DNA of 13,329 nt, from the NCBI GenBank assembly GCA_016926735.1, contig JAFGOA010000115.1, positions 1-13,329 on the forward strand, given 5' to 3'. The notes under the pieces are model-generated. The model was given only the letters and a program-made list of their open reading frames with translations, was not told the DNA's origin and ran no database searches. Below, in pieces: positions 38 to 13,329 of the stretch. Source of the stretch: Promethearchaeota archaeon (GTDB taxonomy: Archaea > Asgardarchaeota > Lokiarchaeia > Sigyniarchaeales > SOKP01). A program made the translations under genes and the position numbers. The number at the start of each line of letters is the position of its first letter. The first letter of the stretch is position 1.

Positions 38-1186
38 TTATTTTTTTGGGCGAAATATTAAAATCGCTAAAGATAAGAACATGATGGTTAATCCTATCAA
101 AATTAAAAATTCGTTTAGGAAACTTCCAAATCCCAATCCATTAATCATAATTGCTCTTGATATATCGATTGAATATGTCATTGGGATAGCTTTCGCTACC
201 CACTGCAGAACATCTGGAAATGATTGAACAGGAAAGATAAATCCTGAGAAAAACATAAAAGGAATTAGTATTATCGGGATAAATTGAAATGCCTGTAATT
301 CTGTTTTAGCTGCGCTAGCAGCTAATATACTTACTCCTATACAACTTAAAGAATAAATAAATAGTATAAAATATAATAACAATAAATTACCCACTATATA
401 TAAATTAAACAAAAACGCTCCTATAATTAATAACAATGAACTTTGAACCAACGCGATAACTGAATTGCCTAGCATATAGCCTAATAATAGATCACTCTTA
501 GTTGTTTTGGTTACAAGTACTCGATTTATAGTTCCTGATATTTTTTCTTTTGTAAAACCCCCTGTTACGTTTAAAATCATAAATAGCAGAATCGCAAAGC
601 TTAAAATTCCTGGAGCTAAAGTATCAATTGGTTTTAAATTAGGATTACCTGCCACATAATCAAAATTTAGGAGAAGTCGTGTTTTGTTTACTGTAATACT
701 ATTAGAAATATAGTTTATCATCTCTATAATCGTGGCTTTTATTGAACCTGCAATTTGAACTTGACTCCCATCTATAGCTACAATTAGATTTATTGTAGAA
801 TTTGTTTTTGGTAAATCTTCTGTGAAGTTCACAGGAAAAACAATTAATGCAAAATAATCATTACCTCCATAAATTTTAGATTCTTCGTCTGATAAGCTAA
901 AATTCACAGGAGATAATTGAGAAACCTGTACCCGATCATCTTCCTGTAAAAATTGAATTCCCATGGATGAGAACGTAGTGTCATTTATCAGAGGTGGTAT
1001 TCCAGGGCCTCCCTCATCTAAATTGACAACTTTAATAGGAATATTTTTTATATCTTGATTAAAACCATATCCAAAAAACATCATAAGTATTATAGGCATA
1101 ATTATCAATAATGCAAAGGTTCTACGGTCTTTTACGAGCGATTGCATATTCTTTTTCACGATTGCAAGAATTTGCTTCATTCCCAT
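38..1186 (-). CDS. ABC-2 type exporter permease with large extracytoplasmic loop (YbhR/YbhS-like, ABC2_membrane_3)
   Basis: 382 aa. It has an N-terminal amphipathic helix (KKNMQSLVKDRR), TM1, a ~150-aa extracellular domain starting IPIKVVNLDEG, then five more TM segments. It contains EKISGTINRVLVT and FFSGFIFPVQSFPDVLQWVAKAIPMTY, typical of ABC-2 permeases. It is coupled to the ATPase by a TAATG overlap at 1186, with GGAGGT at 1200-1195. Confidence 0.93.
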   Translation of the reverse strand: MGMKQILAIVKKNMQSLVKDRRTFALLIIMPIILMMFFGYGFNQDIKNIPIKVVNLDEGGPGIPPLINDTTFSSMGIQFLQEDDRVQVSQLSPVNFSLSDEESKIYGGNDYFALIVFPVNFTEDLPKTNSTINLIVAIDGSQVQIAGSIKATIIEMINYISNSITVNKTRLLLNFDYVAGNPNLKPIDTLAPGILSFAILLFMILNVTGGFTKEKISGTINRVLVTKTTKSDLLLGYMLGNSVIALVQSSLLLIIGAFLFNLYIVGNLLLLYFILFIYSLSCIGVSILAASAAKTELQAFQFIPIILIPFMFFSGFIFPVQSFPDVLQWVAKAIPMTYSIDISRAIMINGLGFGSFLNEFLILIGLTIMFLSLAILIFRPKK

Positions 1187-1974
1187 TAGACATTACCTCC
1201 AAGATTTATAGCTTTTTTATGTTTATGATTCCAATACATGAATACTTCTTCCATATCTGGTAATTTTGGGGCATTATTTATAGTTTTTAATTCATTCTGA
1301 AGATCAAGTGGTATCCCATATTTGATAATTTTCTTATTAATAAATCCAATTTTATCACATTTTACGGATTCTGCTAAATAATGCGTTGTAATGAGAATGC
1401 TTGTTCCTTGTTCTTTTGATATTTTTTTAAAATATTCCCAAAAAACATATCTTAAATCGGGATCAACTCCAACTGTAGGTTCATCCAAAATAAGTAACTT
1501 TGGTTTATGTAGTAATGCTATTGCTAAGGAAGTTCTTCTCTGCATTCCCCCTGAACATTTATTTAATTGACGATTTTTAAATTCTGTTAAATCAACAAGT
1601 TCTAATATCTCATCAATATAATTCATTTTGTTATTTGAATTAATATCATATAGATTTGCAAAAAATCTCAAATTTTGAATTATTGATAAATCCATATAGA
1701 GAGAGATATCTTGTGGCATATATCCAATGAAAGGAAAGACTTTTGGTAATTCTGAAGGAACACTATGCCCAAAGACCTTAATTTCTGCTCCATGATCGGC
1801 TTTTAATAATCCTAATAATATATTTATAGTTGTTGTTTTTCCAGAACCGTTTGGTCCAATTAATCCAAAGATTTCTCCTTTATTTATAGTAATTTCAAGA
1901 TCTTCAAGTGCTTTGAAATCTCCAAATGTTTTTGATAGGTTGTGAATACTAACTACCAAATCATTTTTTATCAT
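1186..1974 (-). CDS. ABC transporter ATP-binding protein (ABC-2/drug-export type)
   Basis: Walker A GPNGSGKTT, Q-loop YMPQ, signature CSGGMQRR, Walker B/D-loop LLILDEPTVGVD, H-loop ITTH. Confidence 0.97.
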   Translation of the reverse strand: MIKNDLVVSIHNLSKTFGDFKALEDLEITINKGEIFGLIGPNGSGKTTTINILLGLLKADHGAEIKVFGHSVPSELPKVFPFIGYMPQDISLYMDLSIIQNLRFFANLYDINSNNKMNYIDEILELVDLTEFKNRQLNKCSGGMQRRTSLAIALLHKPKLLILDEPTVGVDPDLRYVFWEYFKKISKEQGTSILITTHYLAESVKCDKIGFINKKIIKYGIPLDLQNELKTINNAPKLPDMEEVFMYWNHKHKKAINLGGNV

Positions 1975-1997
1975 ATTTTCAATGTATATTTAGTTTT

Positions 1998-2015
1998 TTA
2001 CTACTATCGTAGTAA
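1998..2015. promoter_or_regulatory. Palindromic operator 1a TTACTAC-N4-GTAGTAA (putative TrmB-family site)
   Basis: Perfect 7-4-7 inverted repeat TTACTAC tatc GTAGTAA in the divergent intergenic region. It recurs 25 bp away. Confidence 0.8.
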
Positions 2016-2022
2016 TAATTGG

Positions 2023-2040
2023 TTACTACTTATGTAGTAA
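2023..2040. promoter_or_regulatory. Palindromic operator 1b TTACTAC-N4-GTAGTAA (putative TrmB-family site)
   Basis: TTACTAC ttat GTAGTAA. The arms are identical to 1998-2015 and only the spacer differs. Confidence 0.8.
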
Positions 2041-2042
2041 AA

Positions 2043-2050
2043 TATTTAAA
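2043..2050 (-). promoter_or_regulatory. Candidate TATA box for ABC operon 1
   Basis: Reads TTTAAATA on -, preceded by CCGTAAAC (BRE-like), and abuts operator 1b. The AT-rich background limits confidence. Confidence 0.4.
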
Positions 2051-2091
2051 GTTTACGGAATATCTTTTTAATTGAAAGAGGTAAGATTTGA

Positions 2092-2943
2092 ATGACAATA
2101 ATTGAAAAATTGGAAGAAAATCTAAAAAAGATGAATTTTACTAAGTATGAAGCTAAAGCATTAGTAACATTAATAAAATATAATAATTTAGATGCCAGTG
2201 AATTAGCAAAGTATTCAAATGTACCACAACCTAAAGTTTATGAAACGATGGAAAAATTAAACACAAAAGGATATATTGATATTATATCTGAAGGAAGAGC
2301 TAAATTTTATAAAATCCGACCTAAGCACTCAATTACACAAATTTTTGACGATGAATATCTAGAATTTAAAAATAATTATGAAGAAATTAAAAGTGAAATA
2401 AATACTATTTATTCTATAGAAAAGGATACTGAAATTCCGTTTATAGGTATCTCTGGAGAAAAACAGCTACAAGGATATATGATTGATTTAATTGAACAAG
2501 CAGAAAATCGTATTGTAGCTTTTTTACATCATGATTACTATACTCAATCACTCATTGAGGCTATCAATAGAGTTTCAAAGAAAAAGGATATTCATCTAAT
2601 TTTCCATGATAAGAATTCATCAGAAAATTTAAAAACTGTTATTTTAAATACTAATATCTACTATTTAAAAGATCAAATTTTTACTAAAATTAAGACTTTC
2701 TTTCAAAATATTCCAAATTTTATACCTAATATAAAAGATTCTTATGGAATTAATATTCTTACTCAAGTTATTGATAAATTAAATCAAAATTTTGGATTAT
2801 TATTGGATGATAATAAAAAAAGTATTTTTATTATTCCCTTTCCTATAAAATATCCAATAGCAATTGTGAGTACTCTTCCCGACTTAGTCAACTTTCATAT
2901 GAATGGTGTTGATGAAATTCTCAAGAACTCTATTAAACTATAG
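2092..2943 (+). CDS. TrmB-family transcriptional regulator (N-terminal wHTH + C-terminal effector-binding-like domain)
   Basis: The N-terminus LKKMNFTKYEAKALVTLI..ASELAKYSNVPQPKVYETMEKLNTKGYI is the TrmB wHTH pattern. A coiled linker follows, then ISGEKQLQGYMIDLIEQAENRI, typical of the TrmB C-terminal domain start. SD-like GAGGT at 2078-2082. Confidence 0.9.
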   Translation: MTIIEKLEENLKKMNFTKYEAKALVTLIKYNNLDASELAKYSNVPQPKVYETMEKLNTKGYIDIISEGRAKFYKIRPKHSITQIFDDEYLEFKNNYEEIKSEINTIYSIEKDTEIPFIGISGEKQLQGYMIDLIEQAENRIVAFLHHDYYTQSLIEAINRVSKKKDIHLIFHDKNSSENLKTVILNTNIYYLKDQIFTKIKTFFQNIPNFIPNIKDSYGINILTQVIDKLNQNFGLLLDDNKKSIFIIPFPIKYPIAIVSTLPDLVNFHMNGVDEILKNSIKL

Positions 2944-2994
2944 TATTTTTTAAATTTTTGAGAAAATTCGCAATAAACAAAATATTATTTAAAA

Positions 2995-3378
2995 TTATTC
3001 CCGTTTATTTATCTTGATTGGTGTTATTTCAAAAAATTTATATTGTTTATTTTTCTTCACCACAATCCTATACATAAAAGGATATTTTTTCTTCATTTCT
3101 TTTAAAATATTCTTTCCTTTCTCATCCTCTATTATTGTTGCTATTCCTTCAATTAAATATTTTCCCCTAAGATTTCCAAAGTAATTACATGGAACTAACG
3201 TAACATTAGGATTATTTGCTATTCTTTTAAGTTTCCACGCTTTTTATTCAGAAAACATATATAATTTTAAATTTTTCCAAATATACCATATTGGAGTTTC
3301 AATACTAGTACCATCCTTTCTGAATGTTGTTAGACTTAAGCATTTTTTTCTATTAATAACTGTGTCTATATCAGACAT
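2995..3378 (-). pseudogene. PPOX-class F420-dependent oxidoreductase (Rv2061-like), interrupted by an in-frame TAA at codon 45
   Basis: Manual translation: MSDIDTVINRKKCLSLTTFRKDGTSIETPIWYIWKNLKLYMFSE*KAWKLKRIANNPNVTLVPCNYFGNLRGKYLIEGIATIIEDEKGKNILKEMKKKYPFMYRIVVKKNKQYKFFEITPIKINKRE*. LTTFRKDG..TPIW and KxKRIxNNPxVxxxPC are hallmark motifs. The internal stop is at 3246-3244. Not in the ORF track. Confidence 0.85.
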
Positions 3379-3485
3379 AGTTTAAAATAAAAGCAATTAA
3401 TTTTTAAAAATTAATAAATTTGTTTTAAACAATATTTTTTTAATAAAATAAAAAAAAAGAGATGATATTAGGACCTAATATAATA

Positions 3486-4292
3486 TTATCCTGTAAATCT
3501 TTTTTGTAATGTTCTTTGATGCAATGCAAAAGCTAAAATTAATAGGACGAATCCAAATATAATCAATATTGAGAAATCAATTAAGATACCAAATGTTCCA
3601 AATGCACTAAATTCTCCTAATCCTATATTTATTAAATCCACTAAATAAGTTAAAGGAGATATTAATGCTATACTATTAATATCAATAGGAGTAAATAATG
3701 GACTTATGAAGATCAGGGGAAATTTAATTAATATCGTCATAACCATTGTATCTCCAGGATTTGTTGTAGGGGGCGAGGAAAGAATTAAACTTAATGCTCC
3801 AAATGTTATTGCAGCTACCATCATTGTTAAGATTATAAAGAATATATTAAAACCATTAAATATTAATAATGAAAAAATCCCAATAATTAAAGGAATTGAA
3901 CTAAAAATCATCCCATAGATAAAACCACTCCACAAATTTCCTAATAAAATTGCTTTTAAAGAGATTGGACAAGTTATCATTCTCTCGAATGTCTTTCTCA
4001 ATGATTCCCAAGGAAAGATTATAGGTCCTATAGATGTTGATGTTAAGAATAAAACCATAGTAATCAATCCAGAAAAGAGATAATTTGATGGAATATTTCT
4101 TCCTATTGTAATTGCTATAAATAAAATTATTGGAAAAATTATTCCTTGAATCAATACAGGAGGTTTATTATAATAGATTCTAAGATCTTTCTTCGTAATT
4201 ATAAATGATCTCCTTAGTTGAGAGGAATAGGTTTTTATTTTTGTATTTTTTGATATTATTTCTTCGAGACTAATATAAACCACCCTCCTCAC
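3486..4292 (-). CDS. ABC-2 type exporter permease (start uncertain: GTG 4292, GTG 4283 or ATT 4274)
   Basis: ~6 TM helices, an N-terminal KKDLRIYY amphipathic helix, WESLRKTFERMITCPIS and FISPLFTPI..ISPLTYLVD motifs. Directly downstream of an ABC ATPase. Confidence 0.9.
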   Translation of the reverse strand: MRRVVYISLEEIISKNTKIKTYSSQLRRSFIITKKDLRIYYNKPPVLIQGIIFPIILFIAITIGRNIPSNYLFSGLITMVLFLTSTSIGPIIFPWESLRKTFERMITCPISLKAILLGNLWSGFIYGMIFSSIPLIIGIFSLLIFNGFNIFFIILTMMVAAITFGALSLILSSPPTTNPGDTMVMTILIKFPLIFISPLFTPIDINSIALISPLTYLVDLINIGLGEFSAFGTFGILIDFSILIIFGFVLLILAFALHQRTLQKRFTG

Positions 4293-5277
4293 TAATTATT
4301 TCCAAAAATGCATCCTCTAATTTTGGTTGATAAGTATTAAACTGTTTTAGTTTTACATTTTTAGATTTAAAATAAGCTATAAGTTCATAAATAGCATCAT
4401 TAACATCGTCAACAATGATGTGATATCTATTATTGATAAATTCTACATCTTTAATTGCCTTTAATGATGTAATTTCTTTTATATCAACTATTTCTTCCAG
4501 ATAACAATCAATTGCTTGGAATTTTTGTGTTAAATTTCTTAGATTTTCAGGTGTATCTAAATTTATAATTTTTCCTTGATTAATTATAGCAATTCTATTA
4601 CATAATTCATTTGCAACTTCCATATCGTGTGTTGTGAGAAAAATAGTCATTCCTTGTTTATTATAATCCTTAATTAATTCTTTAATAATTCTAGCAGATT
4701 GAACATCTAATCCTGATGTTGGTTCGTCTAAAAAGAGAATCTTAGGATTATTCATCAATGCCATGCACAAAAGTAAGCGTTGATTCATACCTTTTGAGTA
4801 TTTTTTAGTTTTAATATCTTTTTTTTCATATAGTTCAAATTTTTTCAATAAATAATTAGCTTTTCTTGTTCTTTCCTTTTTTGAGATATTATATATCTCT
4901 CCAATATAGATTAAATTTTGGAATCCTGTGAGATCTAAATATGCATCTGCCATTTCGGGTACATTTCCCATGATTTGTTTGCAAGAAATACTGTATTTCC
5001 ATAAATCATATCCATATATTGAAATATTACCAAGAGTTGGTTGTAATACTCCTGTCATCATTCTAATTGTAGTCGTTTTTCCTGCGCCATTCGGTCCTAA
5101 GAGACCAAATATTTCTCCTTCTTTCACTTTAAAGCTGATATCATTAGCTGCCTTTATCAAATTATTTTTTATTTTAAAATTATTTTTATTTTCACTATTA
5201 TTCTTGAATTTCTTTCTTTTTGAGGATTTAAAGGATTTTGATAGATTTTCTACAATGATTGCATCCAATTTATTCAC
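4270..5277 (-). CDS. ABC transporter ATP-binding protein (DrrA/NatA-like, C-terminal DUF4162-like extension); real start may be TTG at 5268
   Basis: Walker A GPNGAGKTT, signature YSKGMNQR, Walker B ILFLDEPTSGLD, LTTH, and a C-terminal PKLEDAFLEI. GGTGA (archaeal SD) at 5278-5274 sits 5 nt before TTG 5268, which would give MDAIIVENLSK. Confidence 0.96.
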   Translation of the reverse strand: MNKLDAIIVENLSKSFKSSKRKKFKNNSENKNNFKIKNNLIKAANDISFKVKEGEIFGLLGPNGAGKTTTIRMMTGVLQPTLGNISIYGYDLWKYSISCKQIMGNVPEMADAYLDLTGFQNLIYIGEIYNISKKERTRKANYLLKKFELYEKKDIKTKKYSKGMNQRLLLCMALMNNPKILFLDEPTSGLDVQSARIIKELIKDYNKQGMTIFLTTHDMEVANELCNRIAIINQGKIINLDTPENLRNLTQKFQAIDCYLEEIVDIKEITSLKAIKDVEFINNRYHIIVDDVNDAIYELIAYFKSKNVKLKQFNTYQPKLEDAFLEIISEEGGLY

Positions 5278-5535: not shown

Positions 5536-5895
5536 ATGGCAAAAGAAATAGACTTTTTAGAATTAAAATCTTATATTAAAGCTCTACATTGCCCAATTAG
5601 ATGGGATATCATTGATTTATTAAAAGATGGACCAAAGAGTTCTGAAGAGATTTTTAATCTTTTAGTGATTAATGAAGGAATAAATAAAGAGAGGATTAAT
5701 AGAAAATGTAATGGAAATTGTAAAAACAAAAATAAAAATGATATAAAAAAACCTACACTATATTATCACCTGCGTGAATTAGAAGCAGTGGGGATTATCA
5801 AGATAAAGACATTAAAAGCTAGTGAGTATAAAAGAGCCCCAGAGAAAGTTTGGAAACTAAATATTGAAAAATTAATAATCAATTTGAAATTTTAA
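5536..5895 (+). CDS. ArsR-like winged helix-turn-helix transcriptional regulator with Cys-containing insertion
   Basis: KALHCPIRWDIIDLLKDGPKSSEEI and KPTLYYHLRELEAVGII match the ArsR/HTH_20 pattern, with wing RAPEKVWKL. Divergent from ABC operon 2 and followed by T8 (5896-5903). Confidence 0.87.
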   Translation: MAKEIDFLELKSYIKALHCPIRWDIIDLLKDGPKSSEEIFNLLVINEGINKERINRKCNGNCKNKNKNDIKKPTLYYHLRELEAVGIIKIKTLKASEYKRAPEKVWKLNIEKLIINLKF

Positions 5896-5981: not shown

Positions 5982-6461
5982 ATAGATATATCTCCCATTA
6001 GGGAGCTTAGCAATATCAATGATCTCCCGCTTTAAATAATTGGTTAGGGTCGGTTGTGAATCTTTCAACAGATTTAAGACTCTATATGCTTTCATATTAT
6101 ATTTTTATTTGAATAATTCTTAACTAAAAAGTTAGATGAGTCGTATGATTTTTAATAAAAATGAGGATGATATAAATTTTTTAAATCAATCTCTCTATAA
6201 ATTTTGAAGATAATCCTGTGAATTCTATTTATTTTTAATATACCCAGAATTAAATTAATTATAAAAGAAATAACGATGAATATTTATCTTTTCTATAATA
6301 TAAAAGAGTGAATAGGAACTATTTAATCCAAAGAAGTGTACTAAATTCTTTAATTTTAGAAGAAATTATAGATTTTTATAAATAGTCACAAAAATTATAA
6401 ATTAAATATAACTAATCAAAATATATATTAGATTTTAATAGATTTTTTATCCTATTTTCCA

Positions 6462-8759
6462 ATGAAAAAATTTATTTTCAAAATAATAATTTTATTTTTT
6501 GTAATTAATTCAATTCATATTTTAAATACATATTCTGAACCTCATAATATTAATAATCTTAATTTTAATTCAATAGAACAATCTAATCTTGAAATTATAT
6601 CAGAGGGATTTAATAATACTATTTGGAATAATGGAGGTAGTTTCTATCCTGATAATGCAATTGATTCATTTGGAAATATTCATGTAGTTTGGGAAGACCT
6701 ATCTGACGGTGAATGGGGGGGCGGATCTGATGATCCTGAAATAATGTATTGTAATTATACACAAGGTGTTGGTTGGTCCAATGCTACAGTAATTTCGGAT
6801 GGATATCAAGGTTTTTATTGGAATAACGGAGATAGTCTCAGGCCTAAAATTGAAATAGATATTAATGGTAATCTTCATGTAGTATGGCTTGATGCAACAA
6901 TCGGAATATGGGGGGGAACAATATCTAATTCAGAAATAATGTATTGTAATTATACACAAGGTGTTGGCTGGTCCAATGCTACAGTAATTTCGGATGGATA
7001 TCAAGGTTTTTATTGGAATAACGGTCAAAGTTCTTTTCCTGTTATTGATTCTGATTCAAAAGGAAATATTCATGTTGCATGGATTGAAAATTCTTATGGA
7101 ATTTGGGGTACTGATCAAGAAATAATGTATTGCAATTATACACAAGGTGTTGGCTGGTCCAATATTACAGTAATTTCAGATGGATATCAAGGTATCTATT
7201 GGAATAATGATATAAGTCGTTATCCTGATATGAGTATTGATATTAATGACAATATTCACATTGTATGGAATGATGGTACTGATGGTATTTGGGGTACTGA
7301 TCAAGAAATAATGTATTGTAATTATATACAAGATGTTGGTTGGTCCAATGCAACTGTTATCTCTGACGGGTTTAATAATATTTATTGGAATGATGATTTT
7401 AGTGAATCTCCATCAATAGATACTGATTTAGATGGAAATGTTCATGTTGTTTGGGGTGATGGTACTTCAGGAATTTGGGGTGTAGATGAAGAAATTATGT
7501 ATTGTAATTTTATACGCGGTGTTGGCTGGTCCAATGCAACTGTTATCTCTGATGGTTTTAATAGTGTTTATTGGAATAATGATACAAGTGCTCAAGCGGA
7601 TATTTTTACGGATTTAGATGGAAATCTTCATATTGTGTGGGAAGATTGGACAGCAGGTCAATGGGGGGATGATGTTGAGATTTGGTACATTCAACATTCT
7701 CAAGATAATGGATGGTCAAATCCAATCATAATATCTGATGGATTTGAAGATGAATATTGGAATAGTGGAATTAGCATAAATCCTACTATTTCAGTTGGTA
7801 ATAATGGAACTATTTCCATTGTATGGGAAGATGGTACAAATGGTCTATGGGGAACAGATACTGAAATTGTATCATATAATAATATTCCTAATCTACAATT
7901 TTTTTTCCAAACAAATCCAAAGAATGACTATTTTATTTATTTCCTGATAACAATTCTCCTCCTAAGTTTACTTTCTATTATTATTTTGAGTAATAAAGAT
8001 AAGAAAAAAGAAGAATATGAGGAATATATTTCATTTATTCAAATAAAAAAAAATGAAATGTTATGTATTGCTGTAGCAGGGACAATATCTATACAGCAAT
8101 CTATACAAATACATATCAATTCAAATTCCATAATAGATGATAGTATTTTAGATACTTTTTTTATAATTTTTCCTTATATAATCCTTTTAATTTGTTTTTT
8201 AATAATTATATTAATAATATATTCAATAGTTATTTCATATGAGCAATATAAGACATATTTACTTCATAATAATCAAGATATTGATATAAATCGTAAATTA
8301 AGATTGAAAGATATTTTTGAAAATCAAAATAGAAAAAGAATTATTAAAATTATTTTGAATAATCCTGGTATCCATTACAATGCTTTGTTTAAAGATTCTT
8401 ACCTCACACCTGGTCAATTTCAATGGCACTTAAGAGTGTTAATTGAGTATAAAATAATTAAAAGAAGAAAAATAAATAATAATACTATTTTTTTACCTAA
8501 AGTACATCCTAATAATATGAAAATGAAAGGAAATTTTAAAATTATTCAATCAGAGACAATATTTAAGATTCTGGATATAATTGAAATTAATCCTGGAATA
8601 AATCAATCAAATATCTCAAAAGATTTAGAAATGAGTAAATCTTTGGTAAATTACTATATAAATAAATTAAAGAAAAAGAATTTAATCAAATTAACCAAAT
8701 CAGGACGTGAAACACAGATTTTCATGGATCAATCCAATAGGTACGAAGTATATATATAG
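6462..8759 (+). CDS. Putative membrane-anchored one-component regulator: signal peptide + 7-repeat beta-propeller-like ectodomain + TM helices + tandem wHTH (COG3398-like)
   Basis: Signal peptide MKKFIFKIIILFFV, then repeats at aa ~45-474. Hydrophobic helices at aa ~490-510 and ~566-593, with a weaker one at ~533-552. wHTH1 is IFENQNRKRIIKIILNNPGIHYNAL..GQFQWHLRVL and wHTH2 is KILDIIEINPGINQSNISKDLEMSKSLVNYYINKL..IKLTKSGRE. Confidence 0.88.
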   Translation: MKKFIFKIIILFFVINSIHILNTYSEPHNINNLNFNSIEQSNLEIISEGFNNTIWNNGGSFYPDNAIDSFGNIHVVWEDLSDGEWGGGSDDPEIMYCNYTQGVGWSNATVISDGYQGFYWNNGDSLRPKIEIDINGNLHVVWLDATIGIWGGTISNSEIMYCNYTQGVGWSNATVISDGYQGFYWNNGQSSFPVIDSDSKGNIHVAWIENSYGIWGTDQEIMYCNYTQGVGWSNITVISDGYQGIYWNNDISRYPDMSIDINDNIHIVWNDGTDGIWGTDQEIMYCNYIQDVGWSNATVISDGFNNIYWNDDFSESPSIDTDLDGNVHVVWGDGTSGIWGVDEEIMYCNFIRGVGWSNATVISDGFNSVYWNNDTSAQADIFTDLDGNLHIVWEDWTAGQWGDDVEIWYIQHSQDNGWSNPIIISDGFEDEYWNSGISINPTISVGNNGTISIVWEDGTNGLWGTDTEIVSYNNIPNLQFFFQTNPKNDYFIYFLITILLLSLLSIIILSNKDKKKEEYEEYISFIQIKKNEMLCIAVAGTISIQQSIQIHINSNSIIDDSILDTFFIIFPYIILLICFLIIILIIYSIVISYEQYKTYLLHNNQDIDINRKLRLKDIFENQNRKRIIKIILNNPGIHYNALFKDSYLTPGQFQWHLRVLIEYKIIKRRKINNNTIFLPKVHPNNMKMKGNFKIIQSETIFKILDIIEINPGINQSNISKDLEMSKSLVNYYINKLKKKNLIKLTKSGRETQIFMDQSNRYEVYI
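6594..7883 (+). repeat. Seven intragenic tandem repeats of 62-65 codons (186-195 bp)
   Basis: Consensus VISDGxxxxYWNNxxSxxPxIxxDxxGNxHVVWxDxTxGxWGxDxEIMYCNYTxxVGWSNAT. DNA offsets of 195 bp (6738/6933) and 186 bp (7101/7287, 7341/7527). Confidence 0.95.
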
Positions 8760-8906
8760 AATAATTCACTCAACTCAAAGAAATTTTTATTCTTATTCTT
8801 ATAATTTTTTTTTTAAGAATAGAAAGAAATCATATTAATATAATAAAAGTACGATTTTAATAATTAGGTAAAATATATTAACATATTCTCTCTAAAAATC
8901 TTTTTT

Positions 8907-9107: not shown

Positions 9108-9437
9108 ATGGAATCTAGAACAATAGAAGCTAACATAGATAATATTGATCTAATAATCAAAAATTTTTTAACTATAATTCAACCCCAATATTCGTACTAT
9201 AATGAAGACAAAAATATTTATGTATATATATTTGAAAAATTAGCATGGCAAAATCTTTCTGAAGTCTCAGGAACAATTATATTTGACATATTAGAGAATA
9301 AAAGATGTAAAATAATAATAACAATTTCGGGAGGAAAAACTGGTTGGCTTCGATTAACTTGGGGATCTGAAAGAAAAATGATGGAAAAAATCAGTGATTT
9401 TTTTGATTTATTAATAGACGAATTACCTGAAGAATAA
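9108..9437 (+). CDS. Small hypothetical protein, DUF6054-like
   Basis: 109 aa. The pattern VYIFEK...SxVSGTIIF...ISGGKTGWLRLTWGSE resembles DUF6054 (FEK...SLT...GGGxG...WGxE), recalled from memory. The ORF is plausible, but the family call is unverified. Confidence 0.65.
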   Translation: MESRTIEANIDNIDLIIKNFLTIIQPQYSYYNEDKNIYVYIFEKLAWQNLSEVSGTIIFDILENKRCKIIITISGGKTGWLRLTWGSERKMMEKISDFFDLLIDELPEE

Positions 9438-9570: not shown

Positions 9571-12500
9571 TTAAATTAACAATTTGAATTTATTTTTCTT
9601 CTGTAATTTAACTACTAAAATTATCATGGTAATCATTGATATTGAGACTATAATTAATACAGGATAACTTGGAATATTATCCTCTTCTGGAGTTGTTTTA
9701 GTGATAACAATAGTTTCTGAAGCGATTTTATCTAAAGTGCTATTTGCATAAAAAGATATTGTAATAATTCCATCTGGTAATGATTCCCATTCTACTTGAT
9801 CTATTGTACCATTGGAAGTAAATGTTATATTATCTCCTCCATTTAACGAATACCACATAGAATCAAGTTGAGGATGATAAATCTCTACGGTAAAGGATGG
9901 AGCTTCAAAGCCAAATTCTTCATTACTAATTGGACTGATAATTTTTATAATTGGATTGGTACTTTTTATTATAGTAATATTATTTGAAGCTATATTTCCA
10001 TTAGTATCATTTGCATAAAAAGTTATAATTATTATTCCATCTAGTAATGAATCCCATTCTGCTTGATCTATCGTACCATTGGATGTGAATGTTATACTTC
10101 GTCCTCCATTTAGAGAATACCACATTATATCAAGGTTAGGATCCGGTATATCTATACTAAAGGATGGAGCTTCATGATCAAATTCCTCATTATTATTTGG
10201 GCTAATTATTATTGGAAAGGTATATTTTACAATACTAATATCTGCTGAAAAAATAGTTCCTTCTGTATTATTCACATAAAAAGTTACCGTGACTATTCCA
10301 TCTTGTATTGCTTTCCATTCAATCGGATTGCATGTAAAATCAGAAGTAAAAGTTGTATTATCTCCTCCATTTAGAGAATACCACATAGTATCAATCCAAG
10401 AATCAATATCTTCTACAATAAAAGAGGGCATATTAGAACCAATTTCTATTATATTGCTTGGGTACACTATTGTAATATTTATACCAGAATTACATATAGG
10501 ATATAAATCTTGACTATGAGAATAAATAGATATAGTATAACCAGCTATATTGTATGGTAAATCTCCAATACCATCATTATTTAAATCAATCCCTCTGTAA
10601 TCACTCCAATAATTCCCTATTGTTCCATTATCCCAATAATTCTTATCTGGTACTTGAGCCTCTTTAGCATTTACATTATTGTCAATAAATCTATTATTAT
10701 AGATTGTATTATATTCTGAATAAAAATGTAAATAAATTCCTGTTTCATTATTATTTGTAATTATGTTATCTGTTATTATATTGTAATATGAACAATCTAT
10801 ATTTATCCCCATTTTTTTATTGTACGAAGCAGTATTATTCTTTATCATGTTATTATCTGAAGTATCTATGTTAATACCAGTTTCTCCATTATTTAAAGCA
10901 TTATTATCTATAACGGTATTATCATCTGATCTCAAATTTATACCTATACCCCAATGTGAATTGTTTGAAACATTGTTGCTTTCAATTGTGCTATTAGAAG
11001 ATGTGTATAATAAAATACCATAGAAGGAGTTGTAAGAAAAATTATTATTCTTAACAGTAATATTATTTGAATACATTAATGATAAAGCTCCGGAACTTCC
11101 TGAGATATTCATCTCAGATATTTCTGAATCAGAACAATTAACAAGGATTATCTGACCTGCATTGCTAAAATCAGAATTAGTTAGTCCATTTTGATTCTTA
11201 ATATAATAGACTGGTTTATCATTTATTGTATTGGATGTATCTATTTCATGAGTTATAATATCTCTCAATAAACCATAAATTCCTATACCGGACGAATTCA
11301 TAATATTATTAGATAAAGTACACTGATCTGATCCTACTATATATATACAAAATCTATAATTATATAAAATCATATTATCCTTTATTGTACAATTATTAGA
11401 ATTGTCTAAAGAAAGTCCATATTCTGAATTAGATGAGAGGTTATTACCGAGGATTCTACTATTATCTGACCAATATGAATAAATACCATATTCTGAGTTA
11501 TAACATGCAGTGTTGTTTATGAATGAATTATAATCTGAATAAGTTACACTGAGACCTTTATCTCTATTATTTAATGCAGTATTTTCCGTTATAGTATTAT
11601 TTTCAGAAAACCACATTAACCCAATTCCCACTTCACAATTTGAAGCGGTATTGTCTTTAATAGTGTTATTATTTGAGTGATACAGATAGATCCCACATAC
11701 TGAATTATTTGAAACATTATTATTTATGATTGTGTTATTATCTGAAAATAATAGGGTTATAGCTAAAGATGTCTTAGAAATATTTAATTCAGATAGATTT
11801 GAATTAGAACAATTAGCAAGGATTATTTGACCGGGATTGGTAAAATTAGTATTAGTTAAACCAATCTGATTCTTATAATAATAGAGTGGTCTACCATTAA
11901 TTGTATTAGATATATCTATATCTATAGTTAAAAGTTCTCCAAGATAATCTCCAATTCCAATTCCAGATGATTCCATTGTATTATTATAAAGTACACAATA
12001 TGTAGATTCTTCTATAAGGATAGCATATATACTATTATGTAATATTTTATTATCCTTAATAATTTCATTTGAAGAATATCTTATATCAATCCCATATTCG
12101 CAATACAATATTGTGTTATTTATAATACTACAATCATCAGATTCATAACCCATTATACCACATTCCTTATTATAAGAAAATGTATTATTTGTAAGTATAA
12201 TTGAATCAGAATTACTTAAATAAATTCCTCTGTTGTTATTATATGAAATGTTATTTCCTTTGATGATAGTGTCATCTGCGTAAGATAAAAAAAGACCACG
12301 ATAATTATCTACTATAGTATTGTTAAATAATTCAATATTTGCAGTACTTTGTAAATATATTCCATAATTATAACCTTTGATCAAACAGTTTCTTATAATC
12401 AAAGGTCTATCAATATCTCGAATGAGAATTGCACTATCTTCTCCAGATCCCACAAAACTAAAGTTTTCGATGATATAAGGATCACCTATTAATCCATTAC

Positions 12501-12699
12501 CTGTTACATTTGGATGTGTTGCTAAATCCCCATTACCATCAATAAAAATAGGATTGATAACATCAGAAGTTTGAATGATTTCATTTATCTCTGTTTTATT
12601 TTCTGTAGTATCATTATTAAAGATTATTGAACTAAAAGATAAAACCATCAATAAAATAAACAACAAGCTTAGAGTTTTTTTCTTTTTTATTAATTTCAT
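9571..12699 (-). CDS. Cell-surface glycoprotein: NosD/right-handed parallel beta-helix + three Ig-like repeats + Loki-CTERM-like membrane anchor
   Basis: Signal peptide, N-cap PIFIDGN..GNGLIGDPYIIEN, many GIxLxxSxNNTIxxN beta-helix rungs, and C-cap GNYWSDYRGIDLNNDGIGDLPY. Three MWYSLNGG repeats follow. The C-terminus is IPSYP + TM helix + KLQKKNKFK. NxS/T sequons are abundant. Confidence 0.92.
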   Translation of the reverse strand: MKLIKKKKTLSLLFILLMVLSFSSIIFNNDTTENKTEINEIIQTSDVINPIFIDGNGDLATHPNVTGNGLIGDPYIIENFSFVGSGEDSAILIRDIDRPLIIRNCLIKGYNYGIYLQSTANIELFNNTIVDNYRGLFLSYADDTIIKGNNISYNNNRGIYLSNSDSIILTNNTFSYNKECGIMGYESDDCSIINNTILYCEYGIDIRYSSNEIIKDNKILHNSIYAILIEESTYCVLYNNTMESSGIGIGDYLGELLTIDIDISNTINGRPLYYYKNQIGLTNTNFTNPGQIILANCSNSNLSELNISKTSLAITLLFSDNNTIINNNVSNNSVCGIYLYHSNNNTIKDNTASNCEVGIGLMWFSENNTITENTALNNRDKGLSVTYSDYNSFINNTACYNSEYGIYSYWSDNSRILGNNLSSNSEYGLSLDNSNNCTIKDNMILYNYRFCIYIVGSDQCTLSNNIMNSSGIGIYGLLRDIITHEIDTSNTINDKPVYYIKNQNGLTNSDFSNAGQIILVNCSDSEISEMNISGSSGALSLMYSNNITVKNNNFSYNSFYGILLYTSSNSTIESNNVSNNSHWGIGINLRSDDNTVIDNNALNNGETGINIDTSDNNMIKNNTASYNKKMGINIDCSYYNIITDNIITNNNETGIYLHFYSEYNTIYNNRFIDNNVNAKEAQVPDKNYWDNGTIGNYWSDYRGIDLNNDGIGDLPYNIAGYTISIYSHSQDLYPICNSGINITIVYPSNIIEIGSNMPSFIVEDIDSWIDTMWYSLNGGDNTTFTSDFTCNPIEWKAIQDGIVTVTFYVNNTEGTIFSADISIVKYTFPIIISPNNNEEFDHEAPSFSIDIPDPNLDIMWYSLNGGRSITFTSNGTIDQAEWDSLLDGIIIITFYANDTNGNIASNNITIIKSTNPIIKIISPISNEEFGFEAPSFTVEIYHPQLDSMWYSLNGGDNITFTSNGTIDQVEWESLPDGIITISFYANSTLDKIASETIVITKTTPEEDNIPSYPVLIIVSISMITMIILVVKLQKKNKFKLLI
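9694..10480 (-). repeat. Three Ig-like domain repeats (87-89 aa) in the surface protein
   Basis: The MWY motif (taccacat on +) occurs at 9851, 10118 and 10379 (offsets 267 and 261 bp). Repeats 2 and 3 share APSF..LDxMWYSLNGGxxITFTSNGTIDQxEWxSLxDGIIxIxFYAN. Confidence 0.85.
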
Positions 12700-12898
12700 A
12701 ATATCTTTCGGAATTCTATTAATTTATTATTATTTTATAAAATTCAGTTAGATTAAAATGCGTATGGAATAAAATTGAAATTTTGGCTATTTTAAATATT
12801 GATTGCATTAAAATAAAAATTGGTCTATTTAAATTTAATATTGTTAAAAGAACATTTTGATATCAACAACATAAATTCTAACACAATTATTGATTAAT

Positions 12899-13329
12899 AT
12901 GAATAATAAAGACAAAGAATTAATTATTAAATTTAAAAATCTTACTAAAAAATTCGGTGATTTCTATGCTGTTTCTAATGTTAATCTAGAGATAAATAAA
13001 GGTGAAATCGTTGGATTTCTTGGTCCTAATGGCGCTGGTAAATCCACAACTATGAAAATGATGGCTTATCTTTTAAAGCCAACAGAAGGTGAAATATTAA
13101 TTTGTGGGAATGGGACATTAGAGAAATTATCTAATCATAATAAAGATTATTTGTTAGATAAAATAGGATTTCTAATTGAAAATCCCGCATTTTATAGTAA
13201 TGTATCCCCCCGATTGATTTTAAAATATTTTGCTGAACTTAAAGGTTATCCAATAAAAAAAGTAAATCAACGAATTGAAGAGGTTGTTGATATGTTTGGA
13301 TTGTCTGATTGGATTGATAAAAAAATCAA
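12899..13329 (+). CDS. ABC transporter ATP-binding protein, 5' partial (runs off window)
   Basis: Manual translation MNNKDKELIIKFKNLTKKFGDFYAVSNVNLEINKGEIVGFLGPNGAGKSTTMKMM...IGFLIENPAFY... shows Walker A GPNGAGKST, with the frame open to the window end. Not in the ORF track. Confidence 0.95.
   Translation, partial: MNNKDKELIIKFKNLTKKFGDFYAVSNVNLEINKGEIVGFLGPNGAGKSTTMKMMAYLLKPTEGEILICGNGTLEKLSNHNKDYLLDKIGFLIENPAFYSNVSPRLILKYFAELKGYPIKKVNQRIEEVVDMFGLSDWIDKKI

Follow-up and report, generated by a model that had tools for sequence, protein, structure and literature searches.

A propeller-bearing membrane protein with a tandem winged-helix tail in a Lokiarchaeia genome, a candidate transmembrane transcription regulator

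We describe P0001, a protein of 765 amino acids (aa) encoded by an ATG-started open reading frame (ORF; positions 6462-8759, plus strand) in a 13,329-nucleotide (nt) stretch of DNA from a Promethearchaeota archaeon of the Lokiarchaeia (assembly GCA_016926735.1, contig JAFGOA010000115.1; hereafter the window, with a G+C content of 22-32% in 1-kb windows). We lean towards the view that the gene product is a transmembrane one-component transcription regulator, in which a propeller sensor would meet its ligand outside the cell and a pair of winged helix-turn-helix (wHTH) domains would bind DNA while tethered to the membrane. P0001 is a lineage-specific propeller version of the published class of transmembrane transcription regulators (TTRs) and no new kind of system; new here are the propeller head, the three-helix connector and a genus-specific expansion, the class itself being already known. 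The first-pass annotation of the window, made by a model from the bare letters, had proposed an undescribed system. This was overstated, as the tail belongs to a catalogued Pfam family (PF24266) that occurs across the archaea and the general class has been treated in a published survey (PMC10269533).

Architecture of the P0001 protein

The elements on which the first-pass annotation had built its proposal (a signal-like helix, seven repeats, hydrophobic helices and two wHTH domains) were all recovered in their places:

6462..8759, plus strand: whole P0001 gene (propeller, three transmembrane (TM) helices, tandem wHTH; 765 aa), from the ORF call, Pfam and homologue alignment
6462..6536, plus strand: signal peptide or N-terminal membrane anchor, aa 1-25 (MKK and a hydrophobic helix), from hydropathy and an AlphaFold 2 (AF2) helix at residues 2-25
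6594..7895, plus strand: seven-bladed beta-propeller ectodomain, aa 45-478 (acidic, Trp-rich, 11 sequons), from repeats, AF2 and structural searches
7932..8003, plus strand: transmembrane helix 1 (TM1; predicted out to in), aa 491-514, from Kyte-Doolittle hydropathy (KD) of 2.93, an AF2 helix at 486-509 and the basic loop that follows
8004..8060, plus strand: basic loop, predicted cytoplasmic, aa 515-533, from charge counts over 14 three-helix sequences of alignment A1
8061..8126, plus strand: helix 2, marginally hydrophobic, a putative in-to-out TM helix (TM2), aa 534-555, from KD 1.30, conservation and an AF2 helix at 520-555 with a predicted local distance difference test score (pLDDT) of 53-64
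8157..8255, plus strand: transmembrane helix 3 (TM3; predicted out to in), aa 566-598, from KD 3.56 and conserved P571, S588 and E595-Y596 (inner boundary)
8325..8501, plus strand: wHTH1, HTH_HVO_0163_N (PF24266), aa 622-680, from Pfam, AF2 and invariant G651 and W655-H656-L657
8550..8726, plus strand: wHTH2, HTH_24/MarR-like, aa 697-755, from Pfam, AF2 and profile comparison

The N-terminal hydrophobic helix (aa 1-26; KD 2.08; AF2 helix 2-25) precedes seven repeats of 55-66 aa each (aa 45-110, 111-175, 176-237, 238-299, 300-361, 362-423 and 424-478), which share 42-69% pairwise identity (mean 55%). The repeat array is far above chance expectation, and at the DNA level Tandem Repeats Finder places it at 6731-7640 with a period of 186 nt, 4.8 copies and 77% matches. 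The repeats had been described as acidic and rich in Trp, Asp and Asn, and the composition of the ectodomain bears this out: it holds 6 Lys and Arg versus 66 Asp and Glu residues (net charge -60), 12% Asn and 6.3% Trp, and is also rich in Gly and Asp. The N-glycosylation sequons that had been read in most repeats are present (11 N-x-S/T in the ectodomain, NYT, NAT and NIT among them), and homologue alignments show WSNAT as a consensus sequon of the family, but they are not enriched beyond the composition of this Asn-rich protein, with 2.4 per 100 aa in the ectodomain versus 1.9 in the cytoplasmic part. Since the density is nearly equal inside and outside, the sequons are no evidence by themselves, and their enrichment was dropped as an argument for glycosylation.

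A register-clean ectodomain alignment of 71 sequences (A3) was used for AF2 modelling and for profile searches. The resulting model (pLDDT 87.5; predicted TM-score, pTM, 0.91) is a closed propeller of seven four-stranded blades, and its top structural match is the C-terminal propeller of CylK (7ron_A; Z 37.5, root-mean-square deviation 2.6 over 369 residues), followed by the lectins CV39L, BP39L and PLL (6gxs, 6gxr and 5c9o; Z 30.2, 30.2 and 29.6). Foldseek with the model of the whole protein placed Photorhabdus PLL/PHL lectins first (PLL3, E 5e-15, target TM-score approximately 0.7) and six-bladed sialidases lower. A check suggested with the first-pass annotation, whether the propeller closes with seven blades and whether it is lectin- or sialidase-like, was thus answered in favour of a closed seven-bladed fold nearer to the lectin/CylK type. 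Pfam assigned no family to the P0001 ectodomain at E<=0.01; the SBBP repeat (PF06739) matches 13 of the 71 aligned relatives (best E 1.6e-14), with no match in the P0001 ectodomain itself at E<=0.01, and ESM Atlas features gave weak leads only (0.88-0.91), with BNR_4/SBBP in a minority of the proteins in the clusters. By analogy with PLL-type lectins, the propeller may bind a ligand, which would most likely be a carbohydrate or glycoconjugate.

The same propeller is common on Asgard surface proteins, most of the matches being of approximately 515 aa with a signal peptide, the propeller and a C-terminal TM helix plus KRK. Three proteins (P0103, P0028 and P0043) join the same propeller to a cytoplasmic TIR domain (TIR_2), in the order signal peptide, propeller with or without a beta-helix, and one TM helix, which is a Toll-like-receptor-style arrangement in Asgard archaea.

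At the other end of P0001, PF24266 matches aa 622-680 (E 1.8e-16; 60.3 bits versus a cut-off of 31, and 52.5 bits in the genome scan) and HTH_24 matches aa 697-743 (E 4.7e-17; 61.7 bits). Both domains fold as wHTH in the AF2 model at a pLDDT of approximately 80, and the NPGI motif that they had been said to share is found in each (ILNNPGIHYN and IEINPGINQS). The features of the PF24266 family are all seen in P0001: a score above the gathering threshold, HTH_24 directly after the match, and a TM helix, ending at approximately aa 598, directly before it. wHTH1 starts only approximately 15-20 residues past the last helix. NCBIfam returned only sub-threshold wHTH matches for the tail, and the best hit in a PDB sequence search with it had an E of 0.07. 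The tandem-wHTH type is presumably the one that the first-pass annotation called 'COG3398'. Our literature search found no function described for the PF24266 family beyond an acetylome listing, and no description of a propeller-TM-tandem-wHTH protein.

A phmmer search of 1.84 billion cluster representatives with the tail (aa 480-765) returned 2040 matches at E<=1e-3; tightening the threshold to E<=1e-10 left 241, and to E<=1e-30 left 12. Among the best 150 of the 2040, proteins range from 240 to 1702 aa, matches mostly begin within TM3 (query-segment residues 85-100) and reach the C-terminus, and the tail is C-terminal wherever there is a large N-terminal region. PF24266 is present in all 28 of the representatives that were scanned, the N-terminal parts of which mostly have no Pfam family; a few carry ThuA/GATase1-like/ABC_transp_aux-type, zinc-ribbon or Ig/MG2-type domains there. 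The same tail on different ectodomains, for which a search had been advised, is therefore found, and the TM helix with the tandem-wHTH tail is an exchangeable output module behind many different ectodomains, in keeping with which P0001 fits the published TTR class. PF24266 also matches in the control genomes of M. jannaschii, H. volcanii and M. acetivorans. The genome of P0001 has ten places above the PF24266 cut-off, and 25 of its ORFs match the tail at E<=1e-5.

Three hydrophobic segments lie between propeller and tail (aa approximately 486-514, KD 2.93; aa 534-552, KD 1.30, marginal; aa 556-598, KD 3.56). We examined the charges around them in A1, an end-to-end alignment of the query and 14 full-length homologues, of which 14 sequences (the query and 13 others) have three helices. 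Lys and Arg versus Asp and Glu number 7 versus 23 before TM1, 68 versus 8 in the 184 residues of the loop after TM1, 8 versus 25 in the loop before TM3 and 77 versus 59 in the 25 residues after TM3. Under the positive-inside rule this pattern predicts the order out-TM1-in-TM2-out-TM3-in. The two ends of the protein also differ in net charge, the 162-aa tail being basic (+16) and the ectodomain acidic (-60). The homologue P0093 lacks both TM1 and the middle helix and joins propeller and wHTH by a single TM helix, as expected if the two extra helices are an inserted hairpin. Hydropathy was also surveyed in 148 of the best 150 tail representatives (P0121-P0268; P0007 and P0032 were excluded as propeller forms in A1). 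Exactly one hydrophobic segment precedes the tail in 82 of the 89 representatives of at least 300 aa, and 56 of these 82 also have an N-terminal one; 31 of the 46 with 200-299 aa have two N-terminal hydrophobic segments. The single segment in 82 of 89, together with that of P0093, points to an odd number of crossings across the family, which would leave the tail on the cytoplasmic side.

We infer that the propeller is outside and the wHTH pair inside, and state it no more firmly because the middle helix is marginally hydrophobic. The type-I-receptor-like layout that had been proposed stands in its placing of a ligand-type domain N-terminally outside and of the wHTH domains C-terminally inside; it differs in the connector, which has three helices in most members and one in P0093. 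A polar stripe in helix 2 (Q546, Q549, I550 and N553) and a proline in TM3 (P571) are conserved; both may be determinants of helix packing or oligomerisation.

Homologues and the reality of the fusion

A word-index homologue search scored 8000 candidates, 278 of which passed E<=0.001; 120 of these were listed. The organisms named among these listed matches are Asgard only (Promethearchaeota, Lokiarchaeota, Hodarchaeota, Thorarchaeota and Helarchaeota), with a few entries labelled 'marine sediment metagenome', which supports the Asgard origin that had been guessed from the letters. At least 14 homologues of 708-768 aa combine the propeller with PF24266, at 35-48% identity and 89-99% coverage by BLASTP (39-47% identity in A1). 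Three of the 14 (P0020, P0027 and P0061) are paralogues from the same genome, and five more come from genus-mates.

The possibility that P0001 is a pseudogene, or that assembly or a frameshift has fused a surface-protein gene to a regulator gene, deserves consideration since the same genome contains, on contig C144, a propeller receptor with a separate wHTH gene. A phmmer search of all ORFs in the genome found five that match both ectodomain and tail: one at C158 (the P0001 locus), two in tandem at C41, and one each at C222 and C91. At eight loci in three genus-mates both halves are again in a single ORF, of 743-756 aa. Among 151 genomes of the phylum, 97 have tail matches at E<=1e-8; open frames of 748-779 aa number 13 among the matches listed, and all of them belong to this genus, where they occur in four of four genomes. 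The 13 uninterrupted ORFs of this genome and its genus-mates (743-768 aa, same order of parts, on separate contigs) mark the fusion as genuine, a single chain and a genus-centred expansion rather than two genes joined in assembly, and full-length proteins from other sources agree with them. Nor is the two-gene form a broken copy, because it has a different connector and a factor without a TM helix. An artefact is thus effectively refuted, and we regard it as extremely improbable. P0001 is one of five paralogues in its own genome; the ancient archaeal module, with its exchangeable heads, has expanded specifically in this genus.

The two-gene form on C144 (L023:2841-5382, minus strand) comprises a 613-aa protein with the propeller, one TM helix and a cytoplasmic domain of approximately 100 aa, here called X, and, 62 nt downstream of the receptor gene, P0269, a TM-less tandem-wHTH protein of 212 aa. 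Domain X has the core motif F..W.ENEK.EFIKEML.L.P.ER. Within the taxonomic family, 17 of 61 genomes contain matches to it, which are C-terminal in ORFs of widely differing size. A P0269-like ORF lies directly downstream on the same strand in 29 of 30 domain-X loci (two of which overlap the same place), the exception being L056; the unit of receptor-X and soluble wHTH protein is also seen in this setting at G000 contigs C42, C124 and C153 and at loci L037-L066. In profile comparison, the homology between P0269 and the P0001 tail extends across both wHTH domains (99.5%, E 2.4e-22, 175 columns), with W100-H101 of P0269 aligned to W655-H656 of P0001. A model of the complex of P0269 and X scored 0.68, and the best of three controls 0.01. 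In calibration, 116 of 157 solved complexes reached this level, as did 2 of 215 mismatched pairs; these counts apply only approximately, as we used our own alignments. At least 52% of the contacts are shared between model runs, with a partner pLDDT of at least 58, and the modelled interface on P0269 includes residues 94-107, which are the invariant W-H helix of wHTH1. The modelling supports a predicted docking of domain X onto wHTH1 of the soluble factor.

Genomic neighbourhood and possible modes of action

Upstream of the P0001 gene lie an ArsR-like gene (5536-5895, plus strand) and two ABC-2 exporter operons; downstream come a sub-threshold DUF6054 ORF and then a convergent NosD/beta-helix gene. 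The former (9108-9437, plus strand), 348 nt downstream, encodes a soluble protein of 109 aa that scores 24.6 bits for DUF6054 versus a cut-off of 27; no such ORF was found beside the paralogues. The latter (9571-12699, minus strand) encodes a 1042-aa NosD/parallel-beta-helix surface protein with a signal peptide, a C-terminal TM anchor and three repeated C-terminal modules, each with MWYSLNGG. Three ABC transporter systems occupy 38-5277 and 12890-13327 of the window, together with a TrmB-family regulator (2092-2943). ABC transporters flank three of the four loci in this genome (C158, C41 and C222, not C91), but an ABC ATPase is found at only one of eight genus-mate loci, at its far edge, and they were not accepted as a conserved partner. 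In the window, the small ArsR-like gene and an ABC-2 exporter operon are divergently oriented, and a homologue of this gene (E 4e-31; L020:14571-14948, minus strand) has the same placement by the C41 array; regulator and exporter look like a cassette that recurs at two of the five paralogues.

Fused genes often adjoin large secreted or anchored genes of surface type. Two fused receptor-regulator genes at C41 (L020:7500-14560), and one at C222 (L021:4878-9593), precede a same-strand gene for a propeller plus PKD-like paralogue of 778 or 783 aa with only a C-terminal TM anchor, so that sensor and plain surface protein share an ectodomain. In genus-mates G030 and G019 (L070:4882-9408 and L072:5127-9665, both minus strand), type I dockerin proteins of 1508 and 1512 aa are encoded directly downstream of the fused genes on the same strand, and leucine-rich repeat proteins (854 and 673 aa) upstream. 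Among 18 neighbour proteins scanned at eight genus-mate and two own-genome loci there was one Peptidase_C13. No RNA run was listed for positions 6300-8900 of the window.

In the mechanism that we favour, the outward propeller would bind an extracellular ligand. By analogy with PLL-type lectins, the likeliest ligand is a carbohydrate or glycoconjugate carried by a polymer or a partner cell. Binding could cluster or rearrange the three-helix bundle, with its Q-x-x-Q-I-x-x-N stripe in helix 2 and proline in helix 3, and the signal would pass through the rigid conserved junction E595-Y596 to the wHTH pair. This pair would bind DNA while tethered to the membrane and switch nearby genes, which are probably those of cell-surface proteins, the commonest neighbours.

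Several observations weigh against such a regulator. The likeness to lectins is by fold only (8-16% identity in structural alignments, with no PDB sequence match to the A3 profile at E<=0.01), and generic seven-bladed/WD40 propellers also reach a Z of approximately 26. Helix 2 is marginal (KD 1.30 in P0001, below 1.2 in P0061) and AF2 confidence is low in the membrane region (pLDDT approximately 40-70); were helix 2 not to cross, the wHTH domains would lie outside in a simple model. The short linker between TM3 and wHTH1 constrains access to DNA at the membrane. There is no strictly conserved neighbour across paralogue and orthologue loci, and no shared motif was found in the 300 nt upstream of 12 fused genes compared with 2518 genomic upstream regions (k = 8-10), the best k-mer reaching a p of approximately 1e-3 among more than 2000 tested and none standing out at k = 10.

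The lack of an operator motif upstream of the 12 fused genes would also suit a protein that does not signal at all, namely a surface lectin or adhesin whose wHTH pair is a protein-docking domain or an anchor to nucleoid or cytoskeleton, with no sequence-specific regulation. The propeller does sit mostly on plain anchored surface proteins of approximately 515 aa with a C-terminal TM helix, and in the soluble relative a protein interface is predicted at the invariant W-H helix of wHTH1. Both domains, however, score as DNA-binding wHTH families (HTH_24, MarR, ArsR-like), the tail is strongly basic, and the module is retained in combination with many unrelated ectodomains, as is typical of sensor-output designs. 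We consider this alternative unlikely.

To the same low degree we credit the idea that P0001 is a membrane-held precursor from which a ligand would trigger site-1 and then intramembrane cleavage, freeing the tandem-wHTH part to act in the cytoplasm, with a logic as in Notch, SREBP, ATF6 and bacterial anti-sigma cascades. Helix-destabilising or polar residues are conserved in the membrane helices (Q546, Q549, N553 and P571), a tether of approximately 15-20 aa is very short and puts steric demands on any binding to DNA at the membrane, and the two-gene design of the same genome uses a separate soluble factor predicted to dock on the receptor tail, which suggests a hold-and-release logic for the module. 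However, no conserved protease gene accompanies the fused genes, the single Peptidase_C13 being the only candidate among the neighbours scanned; the TM3-wHTH1 junction is conserved as a unit across the family, a pattern more in line with mechanical coupling than with a tether to be discarded; and the known prokaryotic transmembrane regulators covered by the survey work without release (PMC10269533). A broader version, to which we give slightly less weight still, would have Loki-type Asgard archaea signal from surface to genes without kinases, through a network that relies on a single tandem-wHTH module. The module would be either tethered behind exchangeable ectodomains or docked (through the W-H helix of wHTH1) on the small tail domain of other surface receptors, and would be activated by release, the fused form by regulated intramembrane proteolysis.

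Significance and comparison with known systems

Cultured Lokiarchaeia are described as having no ordered S-layer and many surface proteins thought to mediate cell-cell contacts (PMC9834061). The P0001 family may connect a lectin-like surface domain directly to DNA, with no kinase in between. Its sensor heads are exchangeable, there are several paralogues per genome, and in the sister design the module recurs as a stand-alone protein that is predicted to dock. The link to this docked-factor system and the relevance to Asgard surface sensing raise its interest (PMC9834061). Its parts are small and separable (ectodomain aa 26-480, tail aa 605-765), so that ligand arrays and DNA affinity purification sequencing (DAP-seq) could give the PF24266 family its first assigned role.

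The TTRs of bacteria and archaea were surveyed by Demey et al. 2023, who define them by a predicted DNA-binding domain and at least one TM region in one polypeptide (PMC10269533). The survey lists 1,384 archaeal TTRs, possibly including PF24266 members, and its text has 0 occurrences of the word 'Asgard' (PMC10269533). P0001 agrees with that definition, with PF24266 and HTH_24 above cut-off and TM helices of KD 2.93 and 3.56. As in the TTRs ToxR, TcpP, CadC and ArnR/ArnR1, one chain would couple extracytoplasmic information to transcription without a kinase. ToxR and CadC have an N-terminal OmpR-type wHTH, one TM helix and a C-terminal periplasmic sensor, whereas in P0001 the order is reversed and there are three helices; no OmpR-type (Trans_reg_C) match was found among Pfam matches to P0001 at E<=0.01, so that it does not share the ToxR/CadC layout. 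ArnR and ArnR1 of Sulfolobus have an N-terminal HTH and C-terminal TM helices. P0001 departs from this layout as well, its wHTH pair being C-terminal and its large domain predicted to be extracytoplasmic. What sets it apart from these TTR examples is the tandem pair of PF24266 and HTH_24 and the seven-bladed propeller sensor.

The closest likeness of the tail is to the HVO_0163-type proteins (PF24266), which have the same TM helix, short linker, PF24266 wHTH and HTH_24 wHTH as P0001. A typical member has 230-270 aa, two N-terminal TM helices and no sensor, to which P0001 adds a propeller of 440 aa and a helical hairpin. The propeller, in turn, shares a closed seven-bladed fold with Trp-rich blades of approximately 50-60 aa with the PLL, PHL, CV39L and BP39L lectins and with CylK; these are soluble bacterial proteins, whereas P0001 is membrane-bound, and at 8-16% identity the two are likened by fold alone. 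The sister design resembles the RsgI/SigI pairs, in which a surface sensor, one TM helix and a small cytoplasmic domain go with an adjacent soluble factor, in the sister design one that is predicted to be held. It differs from them in that there is no sigma factor in the sister design and the domains are unrelated, and in P0001 the factor is covalently tethered to its sensor.

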